A stretch of 20,000 nt of DNA. Source: Psammoneis japonica (lineage: Eukaryota). The stretch is taken from positions 120,361 through 140,360 of the forward strand of contig QPGO01000187.1 in the NCBI GenBank assembly GCA_008632985.1. Reading direction: 5' to 3'. The position numbers were made by a program, and so were the translations under genes. Under the pieces are notes generated by a model. It did no database searches. It was given only the letters and a program-made list of their open reading frames with translations, and was not told the DNA's origin. This document shows positions 1 through 18,639 of the stretch, one piece after another (the stretch's first letter is position 1; each line of letters opens with the position of its first letter).

Positions 1-2192
1 TCTTCTTCATGCGGTGGCACAGCAGGGTCGATCGTCTTAAAATCAATCAGCTTGCCCTTGTCAGGAGCACACTTCCCTTCCGCAGGAGGGTCCACACGCG
101 GCAATCTTGAAAAACAATCCGCCAAGAGACCATCTTTGCCATCAACGCATTCGAAAGTTGGGGCAAAATCTTCCAAGAAGAGTCGCCACCTAAGAACTCG
201 TTGAGAATTGAGCGCACGAAAGGTGAGATTTTTATGATCCGTAAAAACAGCACAGTCAGCTCCAAATGACATGCTTCGAAATTCTTTGAAACACATTGCC
301 ACCGCCAACAATTCTTTTTCAATCGTAGAGCAGTTCTGTTGTGCTGCGCTGAGTTTCCGGGACCAGTGAGCCACTGGTTTCCCGTCTTGCATAATTGCGG
401 CTCCCATCTGACAGTCCGAAGAGTCAGCACAAATGTGGAATGGTTTGTTGTGATCCGGGTGGACCCAAAGGGTGTCGTCCAGCATCAAGGTTTTCACATC
501 TTCAAAGGCTCGTTGACATTCAGGGGTCCATTCCAACTTGCTCTTGCCTGTCAACTTTGTGAGTGGAGCGAGCACGTGTGAGCGACGAGGCCACATGTTG
601 CGACAATAAGTTGCTGCACCGACAAACGATCGCAGTTGCGTCACAGTTTTAGGTGGTTGCATTCGTAGCACCGCTTCCACTTTCTTCTTCCACGGTCGGA
701 CTCCTGCAGGCATGAGCCAATGGCCTAAAAAATCCGTCTCTTGGACACACCATTCGCACTTGAGTGGGTTAATTTTCAGATTGTTCTCTTCTAGTCTGGA
801 TGACAGCTCATCGAGTCGACGCATGTGAGCATCAAACGAATCATCAAATTGAGCAATGTCATCGATGTAAGTTTCAACATCGACTCCTTTTGCCACTTTT
901 TCAATGATGGCTTGAGCAATGTCGGGAGAGGTTTTCAAACCCATGGCCAATCGACAACATCGAAATTTTCCAAACGGAGTAACAACAGCACACAAATCCT
1001 TGGATTCTTCGTCAAGCTCGATGTGACAATAAAACACAGTGAGGTCCAACTTGGTCAAGTGCTTGCATCCCGAGCGTCGGTGAATAACGTCTTGAATGAT
1101 CGGCAGAGGACAGACCTTTCGCTTGAGCACCTTGTTCAACTCACGAAAATCGGATGCCCATTGAACTCGTCCATCCTTTTTGGGAGTTGCAAAAGTTCCG
1201 GCTGCCCATTCAGTTGGTCCCACTGGTTCCAGTGCGCCAACATTACATGGATGTTGCAGTTCTTTCTTAAAAACGGCTTCATCCCTCTTGGACACTTCAC
1301 AAGCCTTAGAATGGAAGGGAACAGCATTGGGATCAACTTCCAAGTGAACAGTCTCATGCGGACATTTGCCAAGCATTCCATCAAAGAGGGTTTCATGCTT
1401 TTCAAGCACTGCCTGTAGCTCATCACGTTGTTCTTGAGTTAAGTGAGTTTGAGCTTGCGCCACTTTCGCGGATGATGCTTTCTCGCACTTGGCGTCCATC
1501 ACAAAAGATTGTCCGAAGGCTTCCTCATCGTCTTCGTCTTCTCCGTCGTTTTCCAGTGCATCCAACCAATTCTGAACTGAGTTCCAATGATTGGATTGCT
1601 TCATTGGGATCGACGTTTCCAACCACTTTGTTGTTCCAAATCGAAAATCAAGCACGATTCCGGCTTTCGACAAAAAGTCTTGTCCCAAAATTAAATCATG
1701 CTTGCATGGGGCATCAAAAACTTGAGCCGCAATGCTGTCGACTTGTTTTGACTTGTCAAATTCTGGCAATGTCAAGTCCTTCATAATGACGCATCGGGAG
1801 GATTCACATCGTCCGGCTGCCGTCTGAAAGCTCAACCGTCCTTCATCGTTCATGGTTGGATTCGCTCCCTTCGGCAAAACTCGAGAATGAACAAGAGTGT
1901 CAGCACCTCCTGAATCCAATGGCACTCGCAACACTCGCTCACTCTCTTGATTTTGAATGGCACGCACCGCCATCAACGTCGTTGGCACCACATTCAATGG
2001 TTTGGGAGTCGCAGTTTTAGGGGTTGGCTCAGCGCACTCCAAAACGCCGCCCAATTTTTCTTCATTCACAGCATGAGATTCCATCAGGTCTCCCACATTG
2101 TCATCAACATTAAAACATGTGTTTTCTTCACGATCACACGAAACATAAAAAGATTGAGCGACACGCTCTGACTCGGGCACTTCCGTCCCTTG
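1..2192 (-). CDS. pol: Gypsy #1 pol (protease-RT-RNaseH), open to the window edge
   Basis: Manual translation in one frame: LRVPLDSGGADT (D codon 1914-1916), KKDGRVQWASDFRELNK, ETYIDD, ADSSDCQMGA, WSRKLSAAQQNCSTIEKELL, TDHKNL, ADCFSRL. It is missing from the ORF track, consistent with no stop before base 1. Many expected Tyr are His/Cys. Confidence 0.9.
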
Positions 2193-3413
2193 TCAATTAC
2201 GCCAACTTCGTTGGCCTTGATGGGTGCGACCGTTCTGATCGCATCCATTTCCGCCTCGCATCTCACGAGGCCCTCCTTGATCAAAATGGTGCGACTCCAT
2301 TTGCCAGCCACCAGGGGGAGCTGCTCCAGCCGGATTTCCACAGCCTTGGGCATCACCGTTGGCTTGGGTGCCGTTTTGATTTTGGCAATAGGATCCATTC
2401 CCTTGAGAATTCTGGGAGTCATTGTAATTGCCGTAACCTCGGCCTCCACATCCTCCTTGATTGCCATGACTGCCACGTCCTCGACCTTGGAAGTTGCCAC
2501 GACCTCCTCGACCTTGGGGTCCTCTGCCTTGGCAGTTTCCTCGGCCTCCACCACGACCTCCGCTACGACCGCCACGGTCGGACCTCGGTCGATGGTTTTG
2601 GCTTTCTGGATTCAAAATGCAATCCTTCCACTTGTGGTCATGATTCGCATGCACCGGGCATCTAGATTCTGGATCCGTTCCACCACTGTTGCCACGAGAG
2701 CGTCTTGAAGCTTGAGACGAAGCACCATTGCTTTTCCTCTTCTTGTCCTGCTTCTTGTTGCTGCTCTTGTCAGCAAAAGATTTCTCATTGTTCGTGTGAC
2801 TGATGATCTCAGCGAGAGCATCGTTTGCTGTCGCTCGTCCTGCTCGAGTGCACATCTCACGCCACGGACGAGGGAAGCTGTCGAATGTCATCTTTTTCTT
2901 CTGAGCTTCGTTGACTTGAGGAGCATTTCCCGGAAGTTTGTTGGAGTGCCGAATCAAGGTTTCCATGCGATCTGCATGCGCCCGCACTTCAGATTTGAAT
3001 GGTTTTTTCAAAGTTGGCAAATGTTCAATCATCACATCATGCGCTTCATCATCACAATAAGACAAGTAAAAACGATTGATTTCCTGATCAAAACGCTCGA
3101 CAGTTTTATCGGCATCGTCAATTGCATTGGTCAAGTTCACCCACTTGTCCTCTGCAGCATCCGCAAGCACTTCCTCGAAATTTTCGAACAACTCCTCGCC
3201 AGTGGTGCACTCCAATTTCACAGCAATTTTACGAAAACGATCCTCAACGAACAACAATGCTTCAATGCCATGAGTGCCATCAAAACGCGGACACTTTTTT
3301 GTACGAGTGCTACCGTCATCATACGATTGGGTCAATTTCACGTCCTCCAAGTCAGAATGCTCAAATTTAGCTTCACAGCCAATGCAAGGCTCCTTCAACG
3401 ATTCACTCATCAT
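2193..3413 (-). CDS. gag: Gypsy #1 gag-like protein
   Basis: Part of ORF 2193..3581, likely ATG at 3413 (MMSESLKEP). It has a CPVH...HKWKDC knuckle-like motif and an RGG-rich tail, and lies directly upstream of pol. Confidence 0.8.
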   Translation of the reverse strand: MMSESLKEPCIGCEAKFEHSDLEDVKLTQSYDDGSTRTKKCPRFDGTHGIEALLFVEDRFRKIAVKLECTTGEELFENFEEVLADAAEDKWVNLTNAIDDADKTVERFDQEINRFYLSYCDDEAHDVMIEHLPTLKKPFKSEVRAHADRMETLIRHSNKLPGNAPQVNEAQKKKMTFDSFPRPWREMCTRAGRATANDALAEIISHTNNEKSFADKSSNKKQDKKRKSNGASSQASRRSRGNSGGTDPESRCPVHANHDHKWKDCILNPESQNHRPRSDRGGRSGGRGGGRGNCQGRGPQGRGGRGNFQGRGRGSHGNQGGCGGRGYGNYNDSQNSQGNGSYCQNQNGTQANGDAQGCGNPAGAAPPGGWQMESHHFDQGGPREMRGGNGCDQNGRTHQGQRSWRN

Positions 3414-3618
3414 GAAAAAGGGAATGCAATTGTTCAACAGTCCTTTCCAGGGACTCCACCTTTGACTCCAAATGATGCACTCGGCTCGCCAAATTCTGTT
3501 CGTGTCGTTTACGTTGTTGCACTTGTTTCTGGTGCTCAACAGCCCAAACTGCTGCTCCTGCGCGCAGTTCTCTTTTCTCACGTTTGGTCAATTTGTTTGC
3601 ATTGTTCCCAGTCTCCAC
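3403..3618 (-). CDS. Small coiled-coil-like ORF upstream of gag (uncertain)
   Basis: 71 codons with a GTG start and heptad-like LASRVHHLESKVESLERTVEQL. Its stop overlaps the gag ATG region. Confidence 0.3.
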   Translation of the reverse strand: METGNNANKLTKREKRELRAGAAVWAVEHQKQVQQRKRHEQNLASRVHHLESKVESLERTVEQLHSLFHDE

Positions 3619-3636
3619 CCAGTTCTTTGAATCGAC

Positions 3637-3779
3637 TGTAATTACAGTGCAAGGTCTAACGAGATAAAGACTTCAGTGACAACAAAATTGTGAGTGAAAG
3701 ACCAAGGCAACGAGGGTCGCTTTCAGCGAAGCCCGTTACAACGGCTTCCGTTGTGTCTAATGGGTTCATTGGCACTACA
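3637..3779 (-). repeat. Putative short 5' LTR of Gypsy #1
   Basis: The minus strand reads TGTAGT...ATTACA (TG..CA with a short inverted end) just upstream of gag. The partner LTR is not in the window, so the inner boundary is tentative. Confidence 0.45.
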
Positions 3780-3810
3780 TGTCAGAAAAACAAGGTGCGA
3801 GACACTGCAC

Positions 3811-3900
3811 TTGTGATGACTTATGATGACTTGGGATTGCTTGTGATGACTTGTGATGACTTTTGATGACTTTTGATGACTTGTGATGACTTGTGATGAC
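3811..3900 (+). repeat. 10-bp tandem array (TTGTGATGAC-dominant), 9 units
   Basis: 5x TTGTGATGAC, 1x TTATGATGAC, 2x TTTTGATGAC, 1x TTGGGATTGC. Confidence 0.97.
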
Positions 3901-4174
3901 TTCACTTAGGAAGTCGAGTGTGCGGTTCCCGTGCGAAGGACAGCCAGCTGTCTGTCTGTGCAAAAATGTCATCAACACGAGAAGACGGAAAGGACGCGTT
4001 GATGTTGACTGGCATCAACTATGGCGTTCAAAACAACAATCAGCAAAGCCATGAAAGTAAAACCATGATTACCACAATGAAGAATTCAACTACTTTAGGT
4101 GCTGCAAATGTGAGCGTGCGGCCAGAAGCACGCGCAATTGGGCAGTCTGAGGCATCGTCAACACAAGTTGCGAG

Positions 4175-4672
4175 TCAGTTCTTGTTTTTCTTGGACTTGA
4201 TGAGCCAGTGAGAGCGCGACAAACAGTCCCTCTTCTCCTGACAAATGTGATCTCGAAATGCTTTCAACGGGAAAGCCGCGCAAGCTTGGCGGGTTGCTCG
4301 TGGCTTCTCCGGCTCGATCTTTGTCTTGTCGCGAATCGACGTGTCGACGTCAATCTTGAGCCACCTCTCCACCTCGGATCCCTGCCAACGAGGATAGCCT
4401 CGGAAGGCATGCGGTGCAGGAGGATGCAAACGCAGGTCGTGCAAGAAATCAGCCCTGTCTTGTTTGGCACGGGCTTGCCCGGCAGCGATGGTTTTCCGAA
4501 GATTGTTCAGGTTGCTCTGAAAACGCTCACAGGGGAATTCTTGAAATTCGGGGCACGTTTGGCAGATGGCTTTGGGTCCCATTCTGTCAACCTTCTTGGA
4601 AATGATGTCTTCCCCAAGAAGCATCTTTGCCTTGCTGTGCTTCCAACCTTTTTTTCCTCTTGCCATGGTCAT
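4175..4672 (-). CDS. Transposon accessory protein with an internally duplicated helical domain (putative DNA-binding)
   Basis: ATG at 4672/4666. Two related modules: WKHSKAKMLLGED..PKAICQTCPEFQEFPCERF and WQGSEVERWLKID..PEKPRATRQACAAFPLKAF. Basic termini. Confidence 0.7.
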   Translation of the reverse strand: MTMARGKKGWKHSKAKMLLGEDIISKKVDRMGPKAICQTCPEFQEFPCERFQSNLNNLRKTIAAGQARAKQDRADFLHDLRLHPPAPHAFRGYPRWQGSEVERWLKIDVDTSIRDKTKIEPEKPRATRQACAAFPLKAFRDHICQEKRDCLSRSHWLIKSKKNKN

Positions 4673-5061
4673 CGTTCCCTGTTGGCTCTGTCGTCTTGGT
4701 TCTGCTGTGTGCTGTGGACTGGCCAGGAAATCGCCAAAAATTGTTTTGCCACAAAACTTTGGAATTTGAGTGGGCGGCACATTTCTACGTGCACACTAGA
4801 TTTTCGGTGCATTTCTGCGAAACTCAGTGAGAAACAAAAACCATGTGGAAGCGCACAGGCAGAGATTGCCAGGTTAACCCGGCAAAAAAATTTGAGTTTG
4901 AATCCCTCTTGTTGATCCTCGAAGGAAAATGTACATTGTGTTGTCTTTGCAAACACACATGGGAAAAACATTTCCCACGCTTGGCACGAACAAAATTTTG
5001 GAGGTTTAGCGAGGCAAAGTTCTCGCTCAAGTTCTTTCTTCATTGCATGCACAGCAGCTCA

Positions 5062-6845
5062 ATGAGCAGCAGTGGCAGTCAAAACCAACAGCTGCAGCAG
5101 CCACTTTCCTCTCCATCGCCCAACAGGACCAGGAGATCCATCGGAAGCAGACGTTGCGACTCTGTTCCCGCAGCTGTCAACCAAGCAATCATTGAATCGC
5201 TGCTCCGTGATGGGACCGTCTTGTTCTCCGACTTTCACAACAACGAACTTTGCGGATCAGCCGACAAGTCCGAGGAAAGAAGAGCTAGAAACCAATTTGA
5301 CGTCATCCGCCGCTGGCTGAACTGTCAACCCAATCATTTCGACAACTTGGTCAGAGATCTCGAAGCAATCGAAGACACGCCGGAACCGGAAGAGCCTTCA
5401 CCAGCAGCCGCACCAGCAGCGGTGCCAGCAGCCGCACCAGCAGCAGAACCAGCAGCATCAACACGAAGAGCCATGGCGAGCAAGTGCTGCATTGTTCCAT
5501 TTTTTACAACTGTTTTGCATCTCTCACCATCACGTCGCCTTCTTCTTTTGTTCTTTTGCAGATGTCTTTGATGGTGCCAACGAGACGGCGGAGCTCCTGG
5601 CCATCGAGATCAAGGTCAGGACATTCAACTTAGTCCGACCCGAGAGGAACGACGGTGTGCTCCTTTTGCCCATCCCACGTGAGACAGTCGCGACCGGTGA
5701 GGTGGTCAGGGCCCTGACCATCCAGCAACCTGTCGGTGACGACGACTGCCGCGATGGTTTGCACTCCACAGAAATCATTGAGGGGGGGCGTGGCATCAGG
5801 ATCAAGAAGCCCGCCATCTACAACTGGCAACGTCAAGCACAGGCAGTCCAAGAAATAATTGGAAATGGGGCCGCAAACCCTGACACGCTCGTCACTCATC
5901 AGGCAGTCGAGACTGCGTTGAACGAGGACGAGACTCGTCGCACCGTCAAGACAGACTGCATGCTGCCCGACGGCCTCATTTGCAGCAAACGCTGCTTCAA
6001 CACTGGGGCTCCGAACGAAATGCTCAACAACAATTGTCATGTCATTGGTTTTGTTGAGAGTGACCAAACCGATGCCACCGGCGCAAGGCAAACGATTGCC
6101 ACGGTCACGAAGATGCTCGTCCAATGGAAGGTCATGATCGAGAGAGCCAGGGTTGAGCGCATTGGCCCTCAAGCCACCAACGATCACAACCGGGCCATGA
6201 ATGATGCACTGGAACGCATCAGGAACTTGCGCCTTGGTGCTGGTCATGGACGTGGACGTGGATGTGGTGGCGGTGGTGTGTGAGCAATGTGTGCTGATTT
6301 CCATTTTGTGTTTCCTTTTCTAAAACAGATTTGTTTGTTTCTTCAAATTCCTTTTTCAAACAGTTCCTCCTGGAAACAATGGTGCTCAACTGCCTCCAGC
6401 AGCATTGGTGCCGGTGCAAGCTCCTCCAGCAGCATTGGTGCCGGCGGAAGCTCCTCCAGCAGCGTTGGCACCGGTGCAAGCTCTTCCACCGTCGCCTCCA
6501 GCAGCAGCCGCCGCAGCAGCAGCAGCCTCGTCGTCTCTTGCCAGAGCTGCTGCGCAACCTAGAAATGAGGTTCGTGTGGCTGATGAGACGGCACATCTAA
6601 AGCGTCCACGCAGCCGCATCGAAAATGATGACGAGGAACACGAGGAGCTGTCGCGCCAGGCGAATTCGGCCTTGCGTCGTGCACAAGCCAACAGAGAGAG
6701 AGCTCTGCGTCGACGTGAGCAGGAAGAGCAAGCAAGGCACGTTCAGAATCTAGAGGAAGTGCGACGCATCCGGGAGCTGCAAGAGCAAGAGCAGCAGGAG
6801 CAAGAAAACGACGTTGATGGCGACTGCGACATCATGCCTCTGTGA
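5062..6845 (+). CDS. Three-exon unknown protein (~537 aa): exons 5062-5479, 5562-6275, 6364-6845
   Basis: Intron 5480-5561 (GCAAGT...CTCAC...pyrimidine tract...GCAG) and intron 6276-6363 (GTGTGT...ACAG) join three listed ORFs in frame (1614 nt). It has Pro/Ala linkers and a charged coiled-coil C-terminus. Confidence 0.6.
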
Positions 6846-6921
6846 GCTGTCCTCTGGTTTGTTGTCATTTTAGAACACCGCATCACAACTTAAACTGCCA
6901 CTAATTCTTCAAAGTAAAAAG

Positions 6922-7621
6922 CCAGACATCAAACAGGGGATGTCCATTGTCCATGTTGCACTGCACAAGAACGCAGACCACTTCGAAACAGGCTTGGTGG
7001 CGGTCGAATCCGTGCCTGAAAGGCTTTTTCAAGACCTCAAAACTCTTGAGCAACCCGTTCAATTTTTCGTGACGGGCACGAGCTCTCCTCTTGAAGCGAA
7101 TGACTTCCACAGAATCAAGATCATTGCGGATTGCACAAGTCGGATCCCTGCAAATCCGATCCGCAACGACTTTTTTCCCAGGCGGGATCTTGCTCTTGAG
7201 TCCGTTGGGCGCTTTGCAGATCTTGAGGTCGTTGCCAGCTCCAGACCGAAACGGTCCATTGATCCATGCAATCTTGCTTTCATGCATTGAAAGGCCGACC
7301 TCACAGGTGACCCCAGGCCCATTGGATTTCTTGGAGCACCAATTCGAGTTTGGGTCTTGTCGCTGCTCCTCCATTTCACAATCGATGCCATCAGTGGAAA
7401 GCACAAAGACCTCGCCACGCTCACCAAGGTTGGCCCAGACAATCTGCATTGTGTGGACAGCAGACAGAAAGCAAAAGAGTGCAAGCGAAAACATTTAAAG
7501 TCGTCCCAATGCCAGTGACGATTCACGACTCACCTTGTGTTCTTTCAATGCGGCGGTGGCATTGACGTGCTTCTTGATGTGGTTGCGACATGTTTCTTCA
7601 CAAGGTCCCCATCGTCCAGAC
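6922..7621 (-). pseudogene. DDE transposase, 3' part (exons 7534-7621 and 6922-7443; intron 7444-7533)
   Basis: Motifs STDGIDC, WINGPF..G..ND, VVADRIC, RARARHEKLNG..K.F..L...FRH. A phase-0 GTGAGT...GCAG intron joins ...LKEHK to IVW... Confidence 0.85.
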
Positions 7622-7821
7622 TGTGTGTTCCAGCTCTAGGTGGGACCTCGCACTGCTGAACTGTGACACAATTATTTTTTGTCATCCGTCGCATGTTTCG
7701 CACGTGCATTTCTACGTGTTCCATTATAAAAAATTGTTCCACACTGCCTGTTTTGTGAAGCCAAAGGCTTTCTGTCATCTGCACTTTTGTCAACAAAAAT
7801 GCGCTGGGCACATTCTTTAAT

Positions 7822-8252
7822 TGCCCTGTGCATGCACTGGGCGCTGAAAAGAAGATGTGTTGCGACTTTGTCGTTGTGAAAATTGTGAGCCAGTTTAGAG
7901 CAGAGAAAGTGGGATCGTGCGAACAGGGAATCTTGCCAAATCCCTGTTCGTTCGCATTTGGATCGCATCAAATCGATCGTGCATTCGCATTGTGGATTGT
8001 GCGAATCAAGCCATCATGCGCTGTGCACGAGTGATGTCAGCGTGTGGAATCACGCTGCCATCGTGGGCCAGACGACGGGCCAGTGTGCTTCACACGGATG
8101 CTCTCTTGGCATCCTTCTGGAATTGCCCAAGACCTGGAGCCACGCCCTCCTGTGGTCGTGCTTCCCAGGTGCGCGTTAACAATGCCACATTGCCACGCAC
8201 AAGAGGCTCATGCATGGTCTCGCCGTGTTGTCCAGTGGCGAGGCATGCTGCA
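7822..8252 (-). repeat. 3' LTR of Gypsy #2
   Basis: Ungapped direct repeat of 14040-14470; TG...CA on the minus strand. Confidence 0.93.
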
Positions 8253-8266
8253 CACCCCCCCATGAT
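8253..8266 (-). other. Polypurine tract
   Basis: Minus strand ATCATGGGGGGGTG immediately before the 3' LTR. Confidence 0.8.
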
Positions 8267-10585
8267 CAGGGCCGTCAAGTGACAGGATGTCTCACTGGTG
8301 ATGGGGTGCAATCTGCCGTAGATTGTGCGTGTCTGTCAGCGCTCCGTTCTGGATGCGCAACGTGCTGTTGTCATGTGCGCGGACAACTCTGGCAGGTCCT
8401 GCATGGCTGTCAGAACCGCATTTAGAGGATTGTTCCTGTTTGATGAGCACCAATTGCCCTGCGGTGTGTTGGTGCTCCTTGCGTTTCTGATTTTCATGCT
8501 TGTTGTTTAAGTGGACAAGCTTCTGCTTTCTGGTTTCTGTGTGCTTCCACTCAGCATGATGGGCAACAGACAAAACCGCATCGCGTCCGAAGACCAATTG
8601 CATGGGACTTGCACGCGTGGTCGCATGTGCCGTAGCTCCAATGGCGAAGGCTGCTGCGGAGAGGATGCCACTCCATGGGTCATCTTCATCCAGTTCCACA
8701 TCCTGTGCTGAAAAGGAACGCACCATGTTGCCAAGTGTCTGGTGCGCACGTTCCACTGTGGCATTCGCCTGTGGATTCCGTTTGCTTGTGGGTTTCTTCA
8801 AAATCCCACAGTCATTTTTAATCATCTGGCTAAATTCTGCCACAAATTCTGTCCCACGGTCATAAACCACCTGGGTTGGCCACGGACATCTGCATGGCCA
8901 CGTTTGTTCCACGACGTTTGCTGCGACGTCTGCGCGTTTCACAGACACTTCTTTAATCTCGAACCACCCGGTTGCTGGGTCAATCATTGTGACTGCCCAC
9001 AATTGCAAAGTGTCCTTTCCGCGTCTTTGAATTTTATGTGGCCCTGTCATGTCTGTGCATGGAGTCTCCCATGGAATTATCTCAGCGACCTTTTCTGGTG
9101 GCTTCCCATGACGCTGCGTTCGGCGTTTTGTCTTCTGGCATTGATCGCACTTGACGCACGTAGAATGCACCCTAGATCTCACACTGGGCCAGCAGAAGTG
9201 CTGGGCAATGGATGTTTCCATGCGTGTCTCACCTGGATGACACAGTGTCTCGTGGCGCCATTCAGTTAGCGGAACCTGCAATGACTGTGGTGCTGCAATT
9301 TTGTCCTTATGACAGATTGATTGTCGTGATGACCCTCCCCCACGATGCACGTGAATGGAGCAGTCGGACGAGTCCTCAGCTCGTGAGAGCAGGCGCTTGT
9401 CCTTTTGTTGTTCTTTTTGAATGTGCTTGAAGCTAACAGGCAGAGATGCATCGTTTTGCGCGTCTGCATTAAAAGCTTCATGCAAAGGACGACTCGATGG
9501 AGTGTCTTTTACATCCGGATTGGCCTCGGAAGGCAAGCTGGGTGCCAGCCGAAGGCGACTAAGAGCGTCAGCGACTGGGTTGTGGGCACCCTCAACATGG
9601 CGTAATTTGGGACCGCATTCTTTGCATGTTGACCACCAGCGCACAACGCGCTCGGTGTTGAGTGCTTTGTGCGCAAGATTTTTATGATCAGCACATGCAA
9701 TCATGCGATGACCAAGGAGAATCGTTCGAAATTCTTTCAACGTCTCCACAATGGCGAGCAATTCTCTCTCCGTTGTTGCACAATTTAATTGTGCACTGTT
9801 GAGCTTTCTGCTGCAAAAGGCGATGGGTTTGTTGTCTTGGGATGTGACTGCTCCCAATTGACATTTAGAGGCATCGGCGTGCATCTCAAAGGGTTTGTTA
9901 AAATCAGGATGTGACAACAAAACATCATCCGACATCACCCGTTCAACGGTTTCGAACGCCTCGTCTTCAACGGACGTCCACTCCCACTTAACAGTCTCGC
10001 TTGCGAGTCGTGTCAGCGGAGCCAAGACTTCAGAACGTCTGATCCACGTGTCACGGCAGTGGTTCGCCATGCCAACAAATGAGCGCAGGTCGCGTTCATT
10101 GGTTGGGGTCACGATTCGCTTGATGGCGTCAACTTTGTCAGGCGTTGGTCGCATTCCGTCTCTGTTGACCAGGTGACCCAAGTGTTCTAATTGGGTTTGA
10201 CAGAAGTGAGATTTAGTTGCGTTGACTTTTGGTCCTGCTTTCTGGACCCTCAACAAAACTTCTTCAAGTTTGTTGAGGTGATCTTCACAGGTGCCTTTCG
10301 TCATGACGAGAAGGTCATCTAAGTGCATTCGAACGAACGACAGATCTTCAAATGAGCCTGACATGCATTCTTGGAAAATGTCTGGCGAGTTGCACAAGCC
10401 CATGGGTGACACCTGCATCTCATGCTTGCCCCACGGGAAGATGAGCATGCAGAGCTTCTTGCTGTCAGCATCCAATCAGACATGACAATGGCCCACATTT
10501 AAATTCAGCGATGTAGCCCACACAAAGCCTTCGAGCTTGAGTGGCACATCCTGGACATGAGGAATCGGGTGAGGCAATCGCTTGA

Positions 10586-11496
10586 GACTTGTTCCAGACT
10601 TAGGTGGCGCGCACATGCCCCTTTTCGCAGAAAAAATTTTTTTTATGCTTTATACAACATCGTACATATTTCATTACATTGATCATATCAATTGCTTTTA
10701 AGTAAAATAAACAGAATAAACTCGAACAAACAAACAGCCAAACCGGCCATGGCTTTCAGTGACCATGACGGCCCACTTTTTTCAGCCTTATGGAAAATTT
10801 AATGTCATGACGAGGACCTCCGTATTTGATATAGTCTATGGCATCAACAACAATAGTGAAAATGCTTGTTACAGGTTGCAGCGCGGCACAATAATACTAA
10901 ATCTGTCAGCAACAACAATTGAGCCTCAATTCACTCACAATTTGCCTCTAAGGACCATTTCTTTGCCATTGCCATGTATACTTCCTCAATATATTCGACG
11001 GATTCAAGTGTCTCAATCGTTTATGCCTCTTAAACAGTGAAAAATGGTCCGAAGTCGACGCCATTGCGTGGCTGAGCTACCCTTCTTCTCACGTCGTCCG
11101 AAACTTATCAATCAACGTATGTTTTATTCGATCCGTTGAATCAAAGTTGTATTCGCGCATTGTAACCAAAGATTAATTATGTTATGTTAGAGGGTTAATT
11201 TATATATAAGAATAATATTTTATACGTTTCTACACACATTTAGACATCTATAAATCGCTCCTCGGAAAACAGAGCTCTCAACTTACGGTGCAATTTAGGG
11301 ACTAATAACTGAGTCCATCCACAGTTTCGAATACATGGGTACACGCACAAGACCTTTCTGTATGTACCCCATAACAACACATTTGAAAATTGTTATGTTT
11401 TTACTATCGAAAATGGTGCCGCAAGTGTGGACCGCGCGTTTCATGCGAAAAGGGTCATTTTTTCGCGCGTGAGGGCACCCAAGTCTGGAACAAGTC
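10586..11496. mobile_element. Non-autonomous TIR element B (911 bp, AT-rich)
   Basis: TIR GACTTGTTCCAGACTT(A/G)GGTG at both ends and a second inverted motif ATG(C/A)CCCTTTTCGCA (10615-10629 / 11444-11458). TTGA is duplicated (10582-10585, 11497-11500), and removal restores RT ...NKRIKRLP... Confidence 0.92.
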
Positions 11497-11530
11497 TTGA
11501 TCCGTTTGTTCAGCTCTCTGAAATCATTGA

Positions 11531-11977
11531 CGCCGCATCCACGGATTCACCAGGCAAAATTGGCAAAAGTCGGGTGTGGCAAAAAGTGTGCATTTGGTCA
11601 AAATCGATCATTGAGTGCAAGCGATGGTGTCTTTGGGGTCTCTTCAGTGAGCCGAACACGCACATTTCTCATTTGATCATCACAGGTCCGTCTCATGGGG
11701 GGTGTCAAAATGTCGTGCTTTGACGCGTCTCGAGGATCAATCGTCACATGGTGTGTGCAGCCATTGAGGTTGTGTGAAATTGAAAATTCACACATTAAAG
11801 CATGACGTTTTGACATCCCCCGCAAGACGACCTGTGATGGTCAGATGAGAAATGTGCGTCATTGGCTCACTGAAGGGACCCCAAAGATACCACCATTTGC
11901 ACTCAACAATCGATTTTGACCAAATGCACACTTTTTGCCGCACCCGAGTGTTGCCTGGTGAATCCGTGGATGCGGTG
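11531..11977. mobile_element. Fold-back MITE C (447 bp) with ~190-200 bp arms, piggyBac-like TTAA target
   Basis: 11531-~11728 is the reverse complement of ~11791-11977. Flanks are TTGA / TCAA; an ancestral TTAA restores RT VRFVNDFRELNK. Confidence 0.9.
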
Positions 11978-12916
11978 TCAACAAAGCGCACCGTCAAGTC
12001 TTTCTTCGGCATGATGAATGATGGAGCTGCCCATTGGGATCGGTTGATGCGTTTGAGAACACCGACACGTGCCAGGCGTTCTACTTCTTTACGCAGCGTA
12101 GCTTCGTGCGCACGAGGTGCTTTACACAGACGAGCGTGGCATGGTTCTACACCCTCCTTGAGTTGGATGTGGTGGGGTTCTCCCTTCCATTCTCCCAGTG
12201 TCCCATCAAATGAGGACTCATGGCGTTTCAACAGTGCCAAAAGGTCGTTTTGTTGAACCACAGAAAATCTCATTGCCCCTTGCGTTGTGTCCTCGAGGCA
12301 GGCCGGCGCGCACTTAGCGTCCAAAATGCGTGAAATCCGGTCGGTTTCCGAAGACAAGGCTTCTGGATCTTGAAGATAGAAGGAGGTTTCTACCGCAGCA
12401 TCTACGTGCCTCATTGGCACTTCTCCATTGACTGATGGCCACTCTGTCATCTGCTTAGAGAAGACAATGTCAATGCCTTGTGTCTCCAGAATGTCACGTC
12501 CAACAATCATGTCGCACTTGCCCAACTTTCCGTTGTGCACGTGGACGGCATGTTTGAGTTCTTCAGTTTCGCACAATTCTGGTAACCAAAATTTAACGGC
12601 ACAGTCGTTAGACGCACTGAACGAGCCTGCTGCCGTAGCCCCAGTTTGTCTCAGCCGTTGAATGGCTTCGCAGACGCTTGCAGCATCGACTGTCGAGTAG
12701 AGTGCTGCTGGCGCCGCTGTCTGGCAGTGCCTCAATGGTTTGAGTCTTGCCCTTGCCATGTTTGGCATTCACAGCCACAAACAAGATTGGAGTGAGATGA
12801 GTCTTTTTAACTCGTTTGCGGGATTGGCCTGCAACACGTGTACGATGGTAATTCAGTTGTTCATTTGTACATTCATCTGATGCATTAAAACCACCTGCAT
12901 CGTGTCGGCCCCCTTC

Positions 12917-13978
12917 TCAGGTGTCCGAATCTTCGGAATCACTTAAGTTGAGGTCGCGGAAGTGATTGAGCTCCTCCTCGCGTGCCTTGCGCTTTTTCTG
13001 AGCGTTGGCAAAGAACTCCTCGACCTTCGATCCGATGAGAGTGTCAATGTCTTCCTCATTCCGAGGTTTTGCACCAGGCTTGCTGCCTCCATTGTTGGAA
13101 TGTCCAGTCTTGACACGTTTCACGTGGTGCTTGAGCTGACGGCAATCCTCCGTATGATGTCCACAGTCAGTCCCGTGCAGCACACACGACTTCTGGGTGT
13201 TCTGTTGGGTCGTGATCAACGACTCAGGATTGTCCGTTCTACGTCCCCGCTTGCGTGGAATCTTAGCATGTTGGTCCAGGTTGCCTTCGGTGAGCTCAAC
13301 CTGCTCGATGCGCTCGCAGAACTGTGCAAATTCGGCGACAGTGTGCGCCAACGGGTCAAAATTCTGTAGCGTCATGAACTTCTGCCATGCGTTTGGCACA
13401 CCGTGCTCGAACACATCGCACAGTTCGTCATTGGGTGATGGTGCCGGTGCTTCTCCATCCTCCGTCACAGGTGGAAACTGAGAGATGTGGCCGTCAATTT
13501 CAACAGCCCTCGCGACGCAGTCACGAGCAGAAACCTCTGCGGGCTTGCGCATGAAGCGCCTCAGACAACGCTTCTGCAATGGTGCCACCCTGTGTGGGAA
13601 GATGCTTTCCTTTGGCTTCGCAACGCTGTTGGTTTGGGATGCCTGCTTGTTAGCGGCATTGTTGAATGACGTCAGAGCATCGCCCTGCAGTGGGTCACGC
13701 ATGAGGGCAAATTTCGCTGGCCCGGTCGTCATGTTTTGTCCTTCGTGCACGCGATCCACGTTGCGCAGAAAGATTGGGAGTGTCTCGCATGTAGCCGCAG
13801 AAAGGTGCGGGATGCCCATCTCGTGCGTTGGACTGCCCGGATCAGCGGGGTTGTTGCGCAGTTTGAACGTCTGGCACTCGCCCTGCTGTGGCTCTTTCTT
13901 CTCCGGCCGTGCGAACGGAATCGGCGGCTCAATCCGCTTCTTCATGGTCGTTTTGAGATTTGTCGGTCCCACCAACAT
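12917..13978 (-). CDS. gag: Gypsy #2 gag-like protein
   Basis: 353-aa ORF between the 5' LTR and pol with a CVLHG..CGHHTEDC knuckle-like motif; contains no Tyr. Confidence 0.85.
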   Translation of the reverse strand: MLVGPTNLKTTMKKRIEPPIPFARPEKKEPQQGECQTFKLRNNPADPGSPTHEMGIPHLSAATCETLPIFLRNVDRVHEGQNMTTGPAKFALMRDPLQGDALTSFNNAANKQASQTNSVAKPKESIFPHRVAPLQKRCLRRFMRKPAEVSARDCVARAVEIDGHISQFPPVTEDGEAPAPSPNDELCDVFEHGVPNAWQKFMTLQNFDPLAHTVAEFAQFCERIEQVELTEGNLDQHAKIPRKRGRRTDNPESLITTQQNTQKSCVLHGTDCGHHTEDCRQLKHHVKRVKTGHSNNGGSKPGAKPRNEEDIDTLIGSKVEEFFANAQKKRKAREEELNHFRDLNLSDSEDSDT

Positions 13979-14039
13979 TTCGCAGTTTCGTTTCTGTGGA
14001 TTTCGTCACCTCACACAACATGCGGGAGCAATGTCACTG

Positions 14040-14470
14040 TGCCCCATGCATGTGCCAGGCACTGAAAAGAAGATGTGTTGCGACTTTGTCGTTGTGAAAA
14101 TTGTGAGCCAGTTTAGAGTGGAGAAAGTGGGATCATGCGAATGGGGAATCTTGCCAAATCCCTGTTCGTTTGCATTTGGATCGCATCAAATCGATCGTGC
14201 GTTCGCATTGTGGATCATGCGAATCAAGCCATCACGCGCCATGCACGAGTGATGTCATCGTGTGGAATCACGCTGCCATCGTGGGCCAGATGATGGGCCA
14301 GTGTGCTTCACACGGATGCTCTCTCAGCATCCTTCTGGAATTGCCCAAGACCTGGAGCCACGCCCTCCTGTGGTCGTGCTTCCCAGGTGCGCATTAACAA
14401 TGCTGCATTGCCATGCACAAGAGGCTCATGCATGGTCTCACCATGTTGTCCAGTGGCGAGGCATGCTGCA
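14040..14470 (-). repeat. 5' LTR of Gypsy #2
   Basis: Direct repeat of 7822-8252. Confidence 0.93.
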
Positions 14471-14669
14471 CAATGTCCAAAGAACACACCCGGGCACACT
14501 GCAAAGAATGCACTTCAAGTGTGGAGGAGGAGATGCGTTCGCAAAATTGCCTCTTTTTCTGTTGGCGATCACCCATGTGTCCATTGCTTGACAATTTTGC
14601 TGCGGAGCTCGCACGTGGAATTCTACGGGCCCAATGTCACAAAAAGTGCCACCTGGGCTGGAGCCCGTC

Positions 14670-14933
14670 AGACATGGGTTTCTCTTTGTCATGGCTTTGC
14701 AACCAATTCAACGCCATCAGAAACTTGCGAGCGTTGATTTTCGCAACACAAGCATTCGGAATCATCGTCATTTGAAGGTCGACGAAAACGCACGCACAAG
14801 CCTCAGGACAGACACCAAAGCCAGAGTGAAGACGCTCATGGTTCAATGAAGCTCTCACGTTTTGCCTGCCCTTGAAGCCAACAGAATCAAGGCCTGCCCC
14901 AAGAAAATCCTGTGGCGAGATGACAACGACCAT
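14670..14933 (-). pseudogene. DDE transposase, 5' part
   Basis: MVVVISP...FLMALNWLQSHDKEKPMS joins in frame to GRWGPCEETCR (codons from 7617 down) once the insert and one AGAC copy are removed, giving ~289 aa in total. Confidence 0.8.
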
Positions 14934-15074
14934 GGTTGGCTTCTTTGGTTTTATGGGGTTTGGTTTTGGTTGAACGGAGGACAAAACAATTTTCTGTCAA
15001 TGATGATGTCATTCAACTGGGGGCAACGGTCAGATTTGAAGGGCTGCATGTCAGTTTGTCTGTGGACACTGTTG

Positions 15075-15154
15075 TCTTGATGACTTATGATGACTTATGA
15101 TGACTTATGATGACTTTTGATTACTTATGATGACTTATGATGACTTATGATTAG
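15075..15154 (+). repeat. 10-bp tandem array (TTATGATGAC), 8 units
   Basis: Same unit and orientation as 3811-3900, but the TA is retained. Confidence 0.97.
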
Positions 15155-15591
15155 TTAACGAGTTTCCGCGACCAACTCTCCATTGACATTTCACGATTAA
15201 AAACATTGGCGAGTTTGGCGAGCACAGAATGTGTCTTATCGCTAAAGCAATATGAACCGTCATAACATATATATATATTTGTCCGTTGGATTCTTATAAA
15301 TAGCATATAGTAATGAAAATTCGCGGACGGTGCAGCAGTTTCTACTCGTAACGGCAAACCCAAAACGTCGTTCGAACAATGTCGTACGTCCGTCGACCGT
15401 AGGTGATTCCGTTGTAGTATGTGTCCTACGAAGTCCTACTGCAGTTTGAAAATTTGCCGTTTTGGAGTTTGCACCAACATCAGCGCGGCGGTCGGTCCAG
15501 CACAGATTTGCACTTTGCACACTTCATACCGGTAGCAGAGGAAAGGTGGTTTGTTTGTTGCTGCGAGCTTCGTACACACAGCATCCAAACC

Positions 15592-17477
15592 ATGACAAAC
15601 ACCACTCACATCGCTAGTCTCAGTTCTATTCCACACCTCTCGATTCCAAGCTGCAAAGGTCATTTCCGCAACACTCGAGTTGTGATAATTGGAGGATCCG
15701 TTGGGGGGTTGGCCGCCGCAGCCTCCCTCAAGGCTGCTGGGTTCAATCCAAAGAACCTTACCGCGGTGGAACGGGCCAAAAGTCCTCCATCTGGAGCAGG
15801 AATTGGCCTCGACGATGCATCAGTAGGCATCCTTAAGGGGTTGGGGTTGTTGTTGGGGAAAAGAGGAGAAACAGGCACTGTCGTCTCTGTTCAATCCATG
15901 CGAATGACTGAAGAACGCATACTCCCTACATGTGGAGAAGTCAAGAAAGAGATTCGTCTTTCGCAGCCGTATCCATACTCTGCAGTTTTATATTCAGAAC
16001 TGGTCAAAGGATTAGAAAGTGCTGCAGAAGGAATTGACTTTTTGAGAGGCCACAAAGCTGTAGAAATCATTTCTGAAAAAGAAGGATGCTCCCAAGTTCT
16101 TGTACAACAGGTGGATTCCCATGCTCAGAAAATTCTAGAGTGTGACTTGGCGATTGTAGCAGATGGACCCAGATCTCGATTTCGACATTTGTTTGCTTCT
16201 AGTAAAACAAAAGAAGACAAGGAGGATCTTCGATTTTCCGGGTACACGGCTTGGAGGGGAACTGTTCCTGAGACTGAACTTTCTGACAAAGTACTCGACA
16301 ACCTAAAAGAAGCTTATCCTGACTTTGGTAATTGTCTGTACTTTATCTGGGGTCCACCGGGCAAGTCGGCAGTTTTGTATGACATCGGAAAGGGCCTAGT
16401 TAATTGGTTGTTTACGATACAGAGACTTGTCCCAATGGCCAGCCCAAAGCGCCCCCTGGAAGGACAACCACCACTGCGACTCCTTCTGATATCCAACAGC
16501 TCCACCAACAGGCCGTCCATGAGTGGGGAGATGCCTTGGGAGCTTTAATTCAATCAACTCCGGATCCCTTTCAAAATGATATTTACGACATTGAAACACC
16601 TCTCGACAACTTTTGTCGTTCAGGCTTGTGTATTTTGGGAGATGCAGCGCATCCCATTTCGCCTCATTGCGCCAAGGGATCCAATTTGGCAATCCATGAT
16701 GCCTACGTGTTGGCGTGTGCCGCGGCAAAGGCCACATGCATTGCAGAACTATTACAGATGTACTCGACCTCGAGAGTTGAGGCTTGTAGGACGACCGTCA
16801 TGCTGAGTCGACATCTCGGAAGACTGAGAAATCGAATGAAGCCACTTTTACTAAACAGCGAGAGCAACATCGGCGTCGAAGTTCCTTCCACGACAGAACA
16901 ACTGAATGCTCTGGTGCGACTAGCTGATGCACAAACTTCTGTCACGTTGCCTTTTGGAAGTAGCGTGTTTGAACCTACCTGGAGCTTTATTGATGCACAA
17001 GTTCCCGCTGAGCAGCGGGGTTTCTGCCTGTCCAATGTAATGCCGACCCGGCCGCTTTCTATTGCTCAAGTGAACCATTTTTCATTGGAGACGACTCGAG
17101 TAGATCGTTTAGTAGGATTTTATCGAGACGTCCTTGGATTGACCGTCTTGACAACGAGACCAAATTTTGGCTTTGGAGGCGCTTGGCTTCAACTACCTGG
17201 AGGCATTAGTCTTCATATCATTGAACGAGATCCTACCAAGCCATCTGCGAGTGCAATCACCATTGGCAGCCAAAAGTTGGCAGTTCCAGAACGATTCATT
17301 CGACGAAGCAATCACCTAGCTCTGACGGTTCTAGACATTGAAGCTGCAAAGGCAACTCTTCGCGATCATGGCATAACGTTTGCAGTCAACAAGGTTCCCG
17401 ACACTTTTATTGAACAACTGTTTGTCTATGACCCCGACGGGAATGGGGTGGAAATTGGAAACTTTGGTCTAGTTTAA
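15592..17477 (+). CDS. FAD-dependent monooxygenase (aromatic hydroxylase type) fused to a C-terminal glyoxalase/VOC domain; 1-bp frameshift at ~16411
   Basis: Motifs VVIIGGSVGG, ER..GAGI, ADG, GY.AWRG, GDAAH, then VNHFSL..FY.DVLG..GAWL..LHII..NHLAL..DPDGNGVE. The two ORFs meet at TGG TTG TTT AC GAT, where one base is missing. Confidence 0.85.
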
Positions 17478-17513
17478 TTTAAAACCTTATCCTAGTTTAA
17501 TTTAAAACCTTAT
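17469..17513 (+). repeat. 22-bp direct duplication spanning the stop codon
   Basis: CTAGTTTAATTTAAAACCTTAT at 17469-17490 and 17492-17513. Confidence 0.95.
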
Positions 17514-17741
17514 AAAAGTTCTCTACTTTAGACTACAGTTACCACAGTCACTAGTTCCTACTTTCTAGCTCTAGGAGAGGGAGGCAGAAGGTCGGAAAGT
17601 ACAGTAGAAGGGGATTTCTGTCTGCTCCACGCGAATAACGCGAAATGCCATGCGCGTCGCTCGGCGTCCTCACTTCGCTGTGACCGCAAAATCCTTTTAG
17701 TGTGGTAGGCCTTACGGTATCTTTTGTTGGGACGAGTGACG

Positions 17742-18292
17742 ATGATGAATGGGTCCTTTTGTTTGTTGTTGCTTCTGCAGTGCTGTTCATCGTGGCTAAC
17801 GGTGGATTCGAAGCTACTGTCATCACCCACCATCAATGTTACAGGTGCGATTTCGGCTTCGCGCTCGGACGTGTGGCCTCTGGTGCGAGCCGTCGATCAA
17901 TGGAGTTCCTTTACTGACACCTTTGTCCCCGAGCTGATTGGTGGGAACGAAATTGTAGAAGTGGGACAAGAAATCCTCTTTACGACAGAATTTAAATTAT
18001 TTTCGCAACAAACAATCGATCGAATTTACGACATTGTGGAGGAAGAACGAATTTGTTGGAGTCTAGAATCGCTCGTTTTGGGGCCGACGAGAAGGAACTT
18101 GAATTGAGCCCAAAGGTGCTGCGCACTACGGGGCGATGCATTGAATTGTTCGATGATGGAAATGACAACACGATTATTCACAACTGGATCAGCTATGGTG
18201 GGATCCTGGCACCAGCGGTTCTACTCTCCACCGGGTCAGAGCTTAAAAAGCTGTTTCAAGAATTCAATCAAGATCTCGCAGTTCAGTTCTAG
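17742..18292 (+). CDS. Putative secreted SRPBCC/polyketide-cyclase-like protein; frameshift at ~18076-18083
   Basis: Hydrophobic N-terminus, I.AS.SDVW.LV..VDQW, a RICW strand and a C-terminal amphipathic helix (LKKLFQEFNQDL). The two ORFs overlap at a TTTTGGGG run. Confidence 0.6.
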
Positions 18293-18639
18293 AGGCGGTG
18301 TCTGAAGTGCGTCTAGGGATGAACATAGTTGCCTTTTACTAAACCGTGCAATCATGATACCTTCCCACTGACATGAGAGGTTCAAGCAAAATGACTTTCT
18401 CTATAAATCGGTGTGCTAATAATCAGAAACTCTACAATAAATTCCGATACGCCATTGGAAACGGATTCTAAGAAGCTTTTAGGGGAGCGGGATGCATTTG
18501 TAAGGGAAATCTAGCTTCTGGTGCTCATATTGTCGCGGTTCTAGGAGGTGCCCGATACGTTCACCCACTTCATCCCAACGATACATTTTGAATCTAGTAT
18601 GTCGATCATTGGACTATGCTCTAGAGGATTGCATAAACA

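Follow-up and report, generated by a model that had tools for sequence, protein, structure and literature searches.

How did some 15 kb of transposon-derived DNA come to lose most of its TpA dinucleotides, beside a gene that kept them? The question is raised by a 20,000-nt stretch of the Psammoneis japonica genome (assembly GCA_008632985.1, contig QPGO01000187.1, positions 120,361 to 140,360), which we analysed at full length and refer to as the window; all coordinates given here are on its forward strand. Positions 1-15084 are a nest of dead mobile elements, including two Ty3/Gypsy long terminal repeat (LTR) retrotransposons (Gypsy no. 1 at the left edge of the window and Gypsy no. 2 at 7822-14472) and the remnant of a PIF/Harbinger-type DDE transposase (6901-7494), and a host gene (15571-17474) adjoins them. 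We consider it probable, at roughly 0.78, that a host process converts the A:T pair of TpA to G:C in integrated chromosomal DNA, and that this process is of the same kind as the hypermutation described in the alga Bigelowiella natans (Mettrop et al., bioRxiv 10.64898/2026.01.13.699255). Such a process would turn TpA into TpG on one strand, which is read as TpA to CpA on the other. It would have run nearly to saturation over the two Gypsy elements, the PIF/Harbinger-type remnant and the unclassified flanks, and would halt within tens of bases on the side of the host gene.

TpA depletion and the direction of the changes

The 14,163 nt of transposon-derived DNA in 1-10579 and 11501-15084 contain 145 TpA dinucleotides, against 856 ± 22 (minimum 774) in 1000 mononucleotide shuffles. 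The observed/expected ratio for TpA was 0.07-0.26 in the 1-kb bins of 1-10000 and 13001-15000, 0.36-0.50 in those of 10001-13000 and 0.50-0.67 in those of 15001-20000. By segment it was 0.19 (1-3946), 0.12 (3947-7626), 0.19 (7829-10475), 0.19 (11501-14483) and 0.05 (14484-15084), with 0.61 in the host DNA of 15085-20000. A preliminary description of this DNA, made from the sequence alone, had placed the depletion across 1-15084. Overall this is so, but the depletion is not continuous, as an island at about 10601-11405 has a normal TpA ratio (0.77); outside the island TpA makes up 0.4-1.8% of the dinucleotides of each 1-kb bin. The same description had called CpG, TpG and CpA plentiful in the transposon sequence, in agreement with ratios of 0.72-1.10 for CpG over all bins of the window (0.69-0.90 within the elements) and of 1.16-1.77 for TpG and CpA in the bins of the transposon part (1.26-1.63 by segment). 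ApA stands at 1.23. When cut-offs of the B. natans type were applied, which are 5% tails from another genome, 13 of the 15 intervals of 1-15000 passed for TpA and 2 of 15 passed both.

As a baseline for composition we used 79 related Gypsy loci, retrieved in a metagenome scan with an intact relative (P0024). None is TpA-depleted: their TpA ratio is 0.79 ± 0.13 (minimum 0.52) and their CpG ratio 0.97 ± 0.28. By comparison with these sequences, low TpA is not native to this Gypsy clade, because the related loci reach a TpA ratio of 0.79 at a GC content of 0.44. The elements of the window have a GC content of 0.48-0.52 against 0.44 in the relatives, and these 4-8 extra points are about the yield of some 700 changes from A:T to G:C in 14 kb. 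A metagenome scan with the window's own pol gave 77 pattern matches, none of which was confirmed, so that no further mutated copies were found there.

The direction of the changes can be read from the pol open reading frame (ORF) of Gypsy no. 2 (8292-10475, minus strand, 727 aa), which we aligned with 120 homologues of 48-58% identity, the best match (58%) being Tyr-rich. Over the aligned columns the homologues have 21-36 Tyr and the window ORF has 1. In the 20 columns that hold Tyr in at least 70% of the homologues, the window has 12 His (CAY), 6 Cys (TGY), 1 Arg (CGC), 1 Met and no Tyr, while the homologues themselves retain 15-20 of the 20. Most other residue types are retained at 82-100%; Ile, Thr, Val, Met, Lys and Leu are less well retained, and their substitutes are the products of A>G or T>C changes. 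Changes were found at 110 of 427 conserved columns (75 by one unambiguous step, 25 by several steps and 10 ambiguous). T>C or A>G accounts for 53 of the 75 single-step changes, and 46 of these 53 lie inside TpA, where transitions outnumber transversions by 46 to 2. None of the 20 A>G changes falls at ApA, and outside TpA the T>C changes number 2 at TpG, 1 at TpT and 0 at TpC. The C>T or G>A changes, 6 in number, are all at CpG, and decay of CpG to TpG or CpA, which the preliminary description had named as a spectrum that would speak against its reading, is not the main class of directed change (6 in CpG context against 46 in TpA). As a control, an intact relative (L001) read from its own DNA had 1 of 20 single-step changes in a TpA context.

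The other coding remnants have lost Tyr in the same way. Gypsy no. 1, which is farther from the homologue set than Gypsy no. 2, shows 3 Tyr, 6 Cys, 5 His, 5 Phe, 1 Val and 1 Trp at 21 conserved Tyr columns. The transposase remnant has no Tyr, where 138 homologues average 5.5, and its three conserved Tyr columns all read Cys (TGY). Over the three genes the former Tyr codons have become His and Cys in a ratio of 17 to 15, which is strand-symmetric. The changes are mutations of known direction, from TpA to TpG or CpA, on both strands, and they affect transposon DNA and not the host gene, as had been proposed before. We confirmed the Tyr counts given earlier for pol (1 in 727 aa), the gag of Gypsy no. 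2 (12917-13978; 0 in 353) and the transposase (0 in 197). The altered motifs listed earlier are likewise present on the minus strand: HLDD (10314-10325), EHLGH (10173-10187), NHCR (10053-10064), HPDF (9900-9911), FCSRKL (9801-9818), NCATTE (9768-9785), GHCH (10482-10493) and LPDSG (12713-12727). Homologues with native His or Cys and low TpA, a check that the preliminary description had set for itself, did not appear; the homologues carry Tyr and have normal TpA.

We found no sign that the changes are grouped by strand. Strand-coordinated runs numbered 19 against 21.9 expected (P = 0.22; P = 0.20 for Tyr columns only), and patches of processive deamination on a single strand were rejected on this test. 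The flanking base had no effect on whether a Tyr codon became His or Cys (Fisher P = 0.48).

Conversion of integrated DNA

An LTR retrotransposon integrates with two identical LTRs, since a single RNA is the template for both. In Gypsy no. 2 the LTRs (7822-8254 and 14040-14472) differ at 30 mismatch columns in 433, and the differences comprise 9 double TG/CA differences, 11 of CG with TG or CA, and 1 transversion; 19 CG and only 2 TA are shared. A TG/CA pair requires one change in each LTR, starting from TA or CG. From the 19 shared and 11 half-decayed CG sites, CpG decay alone predicts 0.8 such pairs against the 9 seen (Poisson P = 1.7e-7). The pattern implies that each LTR started with about 20 TpA and that about 18 of these were converted, independently of the other LTR and at random to TG or CA. 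The reconstructed ancestral LTR has about 20 TpA in 433 bp, for a ratio near 0.7, the value of intact relatives. Because the LTRs were identical at integration and yet differ at 9 TG/CA sites, the conversion acted on DNA after integration and not on RNA. About 90% of TpA were converted while the 433 bp gained 1 other difference, so that TpA sites changed at least about 1000 times faster than ordinary sites; this is an indirect, rough lower bound with a very wide error, as it depends on a single background event.

The TpA that survive are not a random sample by context. Read on both strands, the base after A in the 145 survivors is T in 9.7% and A in 43%, where relatives have 27% and 26%, respectively. 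ATAT is absent (0 of 145, 8% expected), ATAC, ATAG and GTAC occur at 0.16-0.39 of expectation, and TTAA and CTAA at about twice expectation. This suggests an RTAY-like best site with TTAA as a poor one; the preference is tentative, as some survivors may be new TpA.

Differences of CpG with TpG or CpA form the second commonest class, with 11 of the 21 classified LTR differences and 19 of the 22 differences listed over 4249-7652 between the assembly and contigs from a public run (X1). At 12 of these 19 sites the run reads CG and the window TG or CA. The class fits decay of methylated CpG in silenced transposons, and part of it may be consensus errors at methylated sites, which we considered because the assembly shows indels of the long-read type. 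Methyl-CpG decay has a likeness here in the LTR differences and in the directed C>T or G>A changes of pol (6 of 6 at CpG). It was rejected as the main process, with CpG still at 0.69-0.90 compared with 0.97 ± 0.28 in the related loci and TpA down 4- to 15-fold. We also considered a second step from CpA or TpG to CpG, but 4 single-step changes and one Tyr to Arg change create CpG against 6 that destroy it, too few to be distinguished from background together with methyl-CpG decay.

Conversion of TpA has a marked effect on reading frames. TAA and TAG together occur at 11-15 per kb in the elements compared with 45 in host DNA, and TGA is unchanged or more frequent. The window contains 22 ORFs that are 150 aa or longer, and 19 of them, distributed over both strands, are in the depleted 15 kb. 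Because neither T nor A is ever a product of the conversion, it gives no new TAA or TAG, and TGA can come from TAA only; stops are erased in all six frames. The long ORFs in the depleted DNA are for this reason no sign of selection, and the proteins are ruined by missense changes. The elements stay open while they lose Tyr and many codons for Ile, Leu, Val, Met, Thr and Lys that include a TpA or come after one; the catalytic YxDD of reverse transcriptase (RT) reads HLDD in Gypsy no. 2.

Mechanism, rivals and known systems

The preliminary description knew of no characterised pathway with this signature, but one has already been described. Our search of the literature for TpA hypermutation or depletion returned only the preprint of Mettrop et al. 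on B. natans, and otherwise repeat-induced point mutation (RIP) or RNA and DNA editing in animals. In mutation accumulation lines of B. natans, the accessible text of the preprint reports, 231 of 302 nuclear mutations fell in one giant-virus and one virophage insert, and 230 of these 231 were A>G or T>C changes, each of them at TpA, at about 6e-7 per site per generation compared with 3.5e-10 elsewhere (bioRxiv 10.64898/2026.01.13.699255). The same text reports that TpA-depleted coding sequences of that genome are enriched for RT and DDE endonuclease Pfam families. On that account the window resembles B. natans in having TpA to TpG or CpA transitions on both strands, in foreign or mobile DNA beside normal host DNA, in the footprint of TpA loss with gain of CpA and TpG, and in the involvement of RT and DDE families. 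It differs in that the viral inserts, by the figures given, retain much TpA (Rho 0.45; 3.3% of dinucleotides), while the targets here are LTR retrotransposons and a DNA transposon near saturation, and in that we see a footprint where the preprint saw de novo mutations. The window shows the state that transposons reach in the long term under such a process. New here are the proof from LTRs of action at the DNA level, the evidence that a DNA transposon is affected, the preferred context and a nested element that is spared.

The likeliest chemistry would be enzymatic deamination of A after T on either strand, to inosine read as G, and the process would be directed to silenced or foreign DNA, presumably in defence. 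A thymine-based route, in which a TET/JBP-type dioxygenase would mark the T of TpA with a modification like 5-hydroxymethyluracil (5hmU) or base J, and mispairing or faulty repair would then lead to C, appears unlikely to us. The symmetric outcome of 17 His to 15 Cys is blind to which of the two bases was attacked and fits this route as well. Base J replaces T before A in trypanosome telomere repeats. The accessible part of a study of dinoflagellates describes 5hmU as a base modification that is made by a TET/JBP homologue, silences transposons and prefers T in TA and TC (PMC11572971), a likeness to the window in targets and in dinucleotide, although it is an epigenetic mark there and not reported in that part as a mutator. 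Against the thymine route, T>C is rare outside TpA in the window, with no case at TpC even though dinoflagellate 5hmU also favours TC. Nor is 5hmU known to be strongly mutagenic when it pairs with A.

Error-prone repair synthesis recruited to heterochromatin, for example by polymerase eta at WA motifs, had been put forward in the preliminary description and fits poorly. TA is one of the two WA motifs, but the other shows no change (none of the 20 A>G changes is at ApA, which has a ratio of 1.23), and polymerase eta yields many transversions at A, where we count 46 transitions and 2 transversions at TpA. We regard this route as very improbable.

It is hardly plausible that nothing happened at this locus, that is, that the elements are natively TpA-poor through selection or their donor, or that the assembly miscalls a modified TA. 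The assembly does show long-read errors (a frameshift in the host gene, and gaps between it and run contigs) and many differences of CpG with TpG or CpA from run X1. However, the homologues carry Tyr and have normal TpA, YxDD has become HLDD, and the LTRs have diverged at former TpA sites. In addition, the independent X1 contigs agree with the assembly to within about 1% over the TpA-poor, non-repeated parts 4249-7652 and 14658-14992, and TpA is not restored at any of the 22 differences listed in 4249-7652. Run and assembly may share a sample, and this agreement bears on assembly artefacts only.

Editing of transcripts by an ADAR- or ADAT-like enzyme at A after U, fixed by reverse transcription, can be dismissed in spite of a block that is mostly retrotransposon and of the preference of ADARs for a 5' U and for repeat-derived double-stranded RNA noted in the preprint (bioRxiv 10.64898/2026.01.13.699255), because LTRs of the same element differ at 9 TG/CA sites, the DNA-transposon remnant and unclassified flanks are equally depleted and both strands are hit equally; moreover, ApA, the second-best ADAR context, is untouched, and the B. 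natans mutations are reported as arising de novo in single-copy integrated DNA.

Several points weigh against conversion of TpA by a directed host activity. The signature is the same for A to G on one strand as for T to C on the other. Part of the TpG and CpA excess may stem from CpG decay or from long-read consensus errors. Only 3 of the 40 listed differences between assembly and run involve TpA, which lends no support to ongoing activity. TpA is kept in a nested element and an array that are both repeated, and is depleted in non-repeated parts, as set out below. As regards ADAT-type enzymes, the natural tRNA target A34 always follows U33, to our knowledge. Mettrop et al. propose, in the accessible text, an ADAT2-like DNA adenine deaminase (bioRxiv 10.64898/2026.01.13.699255), but amphioxus ADAT2, which the preprint cites and which is the one such enzyme assayed on DNA, is reported, in the part of that study accessible, to prefer GAA and not TA for adenine (PMC10354150), and the analogy appears weak because of this preference.

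Among better known systems, RIP of ascomycete fungi is similar in being a dinucleotide-specific transition hypermutation at the DNA level that cripples mobile elements and leaves its mark on dinucleotide composition. As far as the accessible parts of two sources and general knowledge go, RIP is triggered by duplication, converts CpA or TpG to TpA, lowers GC and creates stops (PMC2621366, PMC7296669). In the window TpA becomes TpG or CpA, GC goes up and stops are erased, and the earlier view of the signature as the reverse of RIP in dinucleotide terms agrees with our data: GC is above the 0.44 of the relatives and TAA plus TAG stand at no more than a third of their host density. ADAR and APOBEC editing of animal retroelements is similar in that deaminase-type transitions mark copies as a by-product of defence (accessible parts of PMC4866542 and PMC3197674). 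By those accounts the enzymes act before integration, on RNA or reverse-transcription intermediates and on one strand, with G>A or C>T from APOBEC. The change in the window differs in being post-integration, on both strands, at A:T in TpA and also in a DNA transposon.

Targets, neighbouring features and significance

The right boundary of the depletion is sharp. There are 4 TpA in 14000-15085 and then 9 in 15086-15156, with normal density beyond; the 460 nt just before the boundary at 15085 hold 1 TpA, and 14484-15084 holds 2 in 601 nt. Homologous 10-nt arrays lie on the two sides of it: the array at 3811-3902, inside the block, reads mostly TTGTGATGAC, and the one at 15085-15160, where TpA is kept, reads TTATGATGAC, with TG inside and TA outside.

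The TpA-normal island lies inside a nested element with terminal inverted repeats (TIRs) at 10584-11498 (915 bp, unassigned strand, TIRs of about 24 nt beginning AGACTTGTTCCAGACTT), which interrupts the RT of Gypsy no. 2. It holds 65 TpA at 10601-11405, for the ratio of 0.77 given above, is AT-rich, non-autonomous and repeated in the genome, and has a depth of 3865 in the bin 10673-11339 compared with about 55 for non-repeated DNA, bearing in mind that contig depth is not copy number. The dinucleotides flanking it are TG on both sides; as a speculation, these fit a mutated TA target duplication, as a Tc1/mariner-type element would give TA. A second insertion in the RT, next to it (11499-11976, 478 bp, unassigned strand), is nearly free of TpA, with 2 TpA between 11406 and 12081.

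The process had been described before as restricted to repeats, and this is not supported. The non-repeated parts 4003-7337 and 14658-14992, with a k-mer depth of about 55-70, like the host gene, are depleted, whereas the repeated TIR element and the repeated array at 15085-15160 are spared. Present copy number alone does not explain the targeting. The same facts may set the window apart from the duplication-triggered RIP, although past copy number and insertion order could differ. Either the TIR element arrived after the episode of mutation or targets are chosen element by element. Episodic action fits, as activity was confined to a subset of lines in the preprint. Element-specific targeting at base-pair level would point to guidance by sequence, for example by small RNA, over spreading chromatin.

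One 10-nt minisatellite (TTATGATGAC and variants) accounts for the arrays at both 3811-3902 and 15075-15160, which have a similar lead-in (CATGTCAG...GACACTG). The minisatellite is perhaps a dispersed repeat, possibly part of the Gypsy no. 1 LTR, because short run contigs join its two places. We rejected the contig joints from 3946 to 15048 as structural evidence, as their sides extend just 21-26 nt across similar arrays.

The mobile elements have the following layout. The internal part of Gypsy no. 1 (1-3587, minus strand, TpA ratio 0.19) runs past the left edge of the window and contains a protease/RT/RNase H ORF (3-2192, minus strand; Pfam RVT_1, RT_RNaseH and RT_RNaseH_2, with homologue tblastn covering 63-2009) and a gag-like ORF (2193-3587, minus strand). 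An LTR-like end (3588-3946, minus strand), recognised from a repeat search and the sequence, holds the tandem array at 3811-3902. Old transposon-derived DNA follows (3947-7821, minus strand, TpA ratio 0.12), non-repeated by k-mer depth over 4003-7337. Within it lies the PIF/Harbinger-type DDE_Tnp_4 remnant (minus strand), which has a Pfam E-value of 3.6e-5 and 23.9 bits, just below the cut-off of 24.8 bits, and 2003 library matches with a top identity of 53%.

Gypsy no. 2 (minus strand) has the make-up of a Ty3/Gypsy element, with TG...CA LTRs flanking gag and a pol in the order protease, RT, RNase H and integrase, and the Pfam families of the Gypsy carriers include RVT_1, RT_RNaseH, Integrase_H2C2 and rve. 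Its 3' LTR (7822-8254) and 5' LTR (14040-14472), both on the minus strand, are 433 bp each. Between them are the C-terminal part of pol (8295-10586, minus strand; RT from mid-domain, RNase H and integrase, matching residues 330-1096 of P0019 by tblastn), which includes the 727-aa ORF, the N-terminal part (11977-12910, minus strand; protease to the start of RT) and gag (minus strand). Tblastn shows pol to be collinear with full-length relatives save for a 1390-bp gap at 10587-11976 and a frameshift at about 12640; other copies show one-base indels at 12637-12640. No target-site duplication was recognisable at the two ends of the element.

The second nested insertion has 127-nt inverted arms (11562-11688 and 11829-11955) that are 88% complementary and 140 nt apart, as in a foldback-type element that was already TpA-free; the 15 differences between the arms are mixed and uninformative on the process. 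Nowhere in the window is summed contig depth higher than in the segments that flank Gypsy no. 2, 7338-7821 (about 39,000) and 14473-14674 (about 55,000, with about 55 in non-repeated DNA), and by this depth a short repeat of very high abundance seems to surround the element. There are clusters of loose contig ends at 7627, 7668 and 14571. The depleted block ends with a flank at 14473-15084 (unassigned strand) that is non-repeated by k-mer depth over 14658-14992, and the 10-nt tandem array (unassigned strand) follows. Scans of the window against Rfam and for tRNAs gave no matches.

The host gene (15571-17474, plus strand), preceded by a promoter region, is predicted from Pfam, homologues and tblastn to encode a fusion of a flavin adenine dinucleotide-dependent monooxygenase with a glyoxalase/VOC domain. 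Tyr content is normal and the surrounding 15085-20000 has its TpA ratio of 0.61. The best matches reach 62% identity for the second half and 50% for the first, and the sole named homologue is from the diatom Seminavis robusta (45%). B. natans genes are intron-rich, whereas the host gene here has no intron over 1.9 kb. For a high-copy family and an expressed gene of B. natans, near-identical entries would be expected in the collections searched, and the distances found for pol and for the host gene make a different organism probable. At 16443-16452, beside a run of C, the frame shifts with no homologue residues lost, as by a one-base indel and not an intron. Contigs spanning this site (X1, 15304-18476; X2, 16168-16473) show gaps relative to the window, and the frameshift is probably an assembly indel and does not mark a pseudogene. 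An ORF at 19134-19679 (minus strand) has no assigned family. The region 18670-20000 has 26 differences between assembly and contig in about 1.2 kb, compared with 1 in 3.2 kb for 15304-18476, and its TpA is normal. A higher divergence of the transposons than of host DNA between assembly and run X1, with 25 differences over about 3.4 kb of the former and 1 over 3.2 kb of the latter, was rejected as a reading, being undercut by the 26 in 18670-20000.

These results have practical consequences. The usual clock of LTR divergence overestimates age here about 10-fold, as only 1 of the 30 mismatch columns is background. LTR pairs can instead be scored genome-wide as a clock of the process, and they offer a natural test of its DNA level and timing. 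Erasure of stops misleads gene callers and tests that equate an intact ORF with an active element. The window also points to a natural, T-A-specific activity converting A:T to G:C in DNA, which is relevant to base editing.

TpA hypermutation has so far rested on one preprint in one alga, and a second genome adds ordinary transposons as targets. It also enables phylogenetic profiling, in which genes common to both organisms and absent from relatives without the footprint can be sought. It is possible, though we hold it only tentatively, that P. japonica represents a second, non-chlorarachniophyte lineage with hypermutation of the B. natans type, in which an enzyme preferring RTAY saturates ordinary transposons with element-specific targeting. 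If so, the process would be a widespread or horizontally spread genome defence of eukaryotes and not a peculiarity of B. natans.

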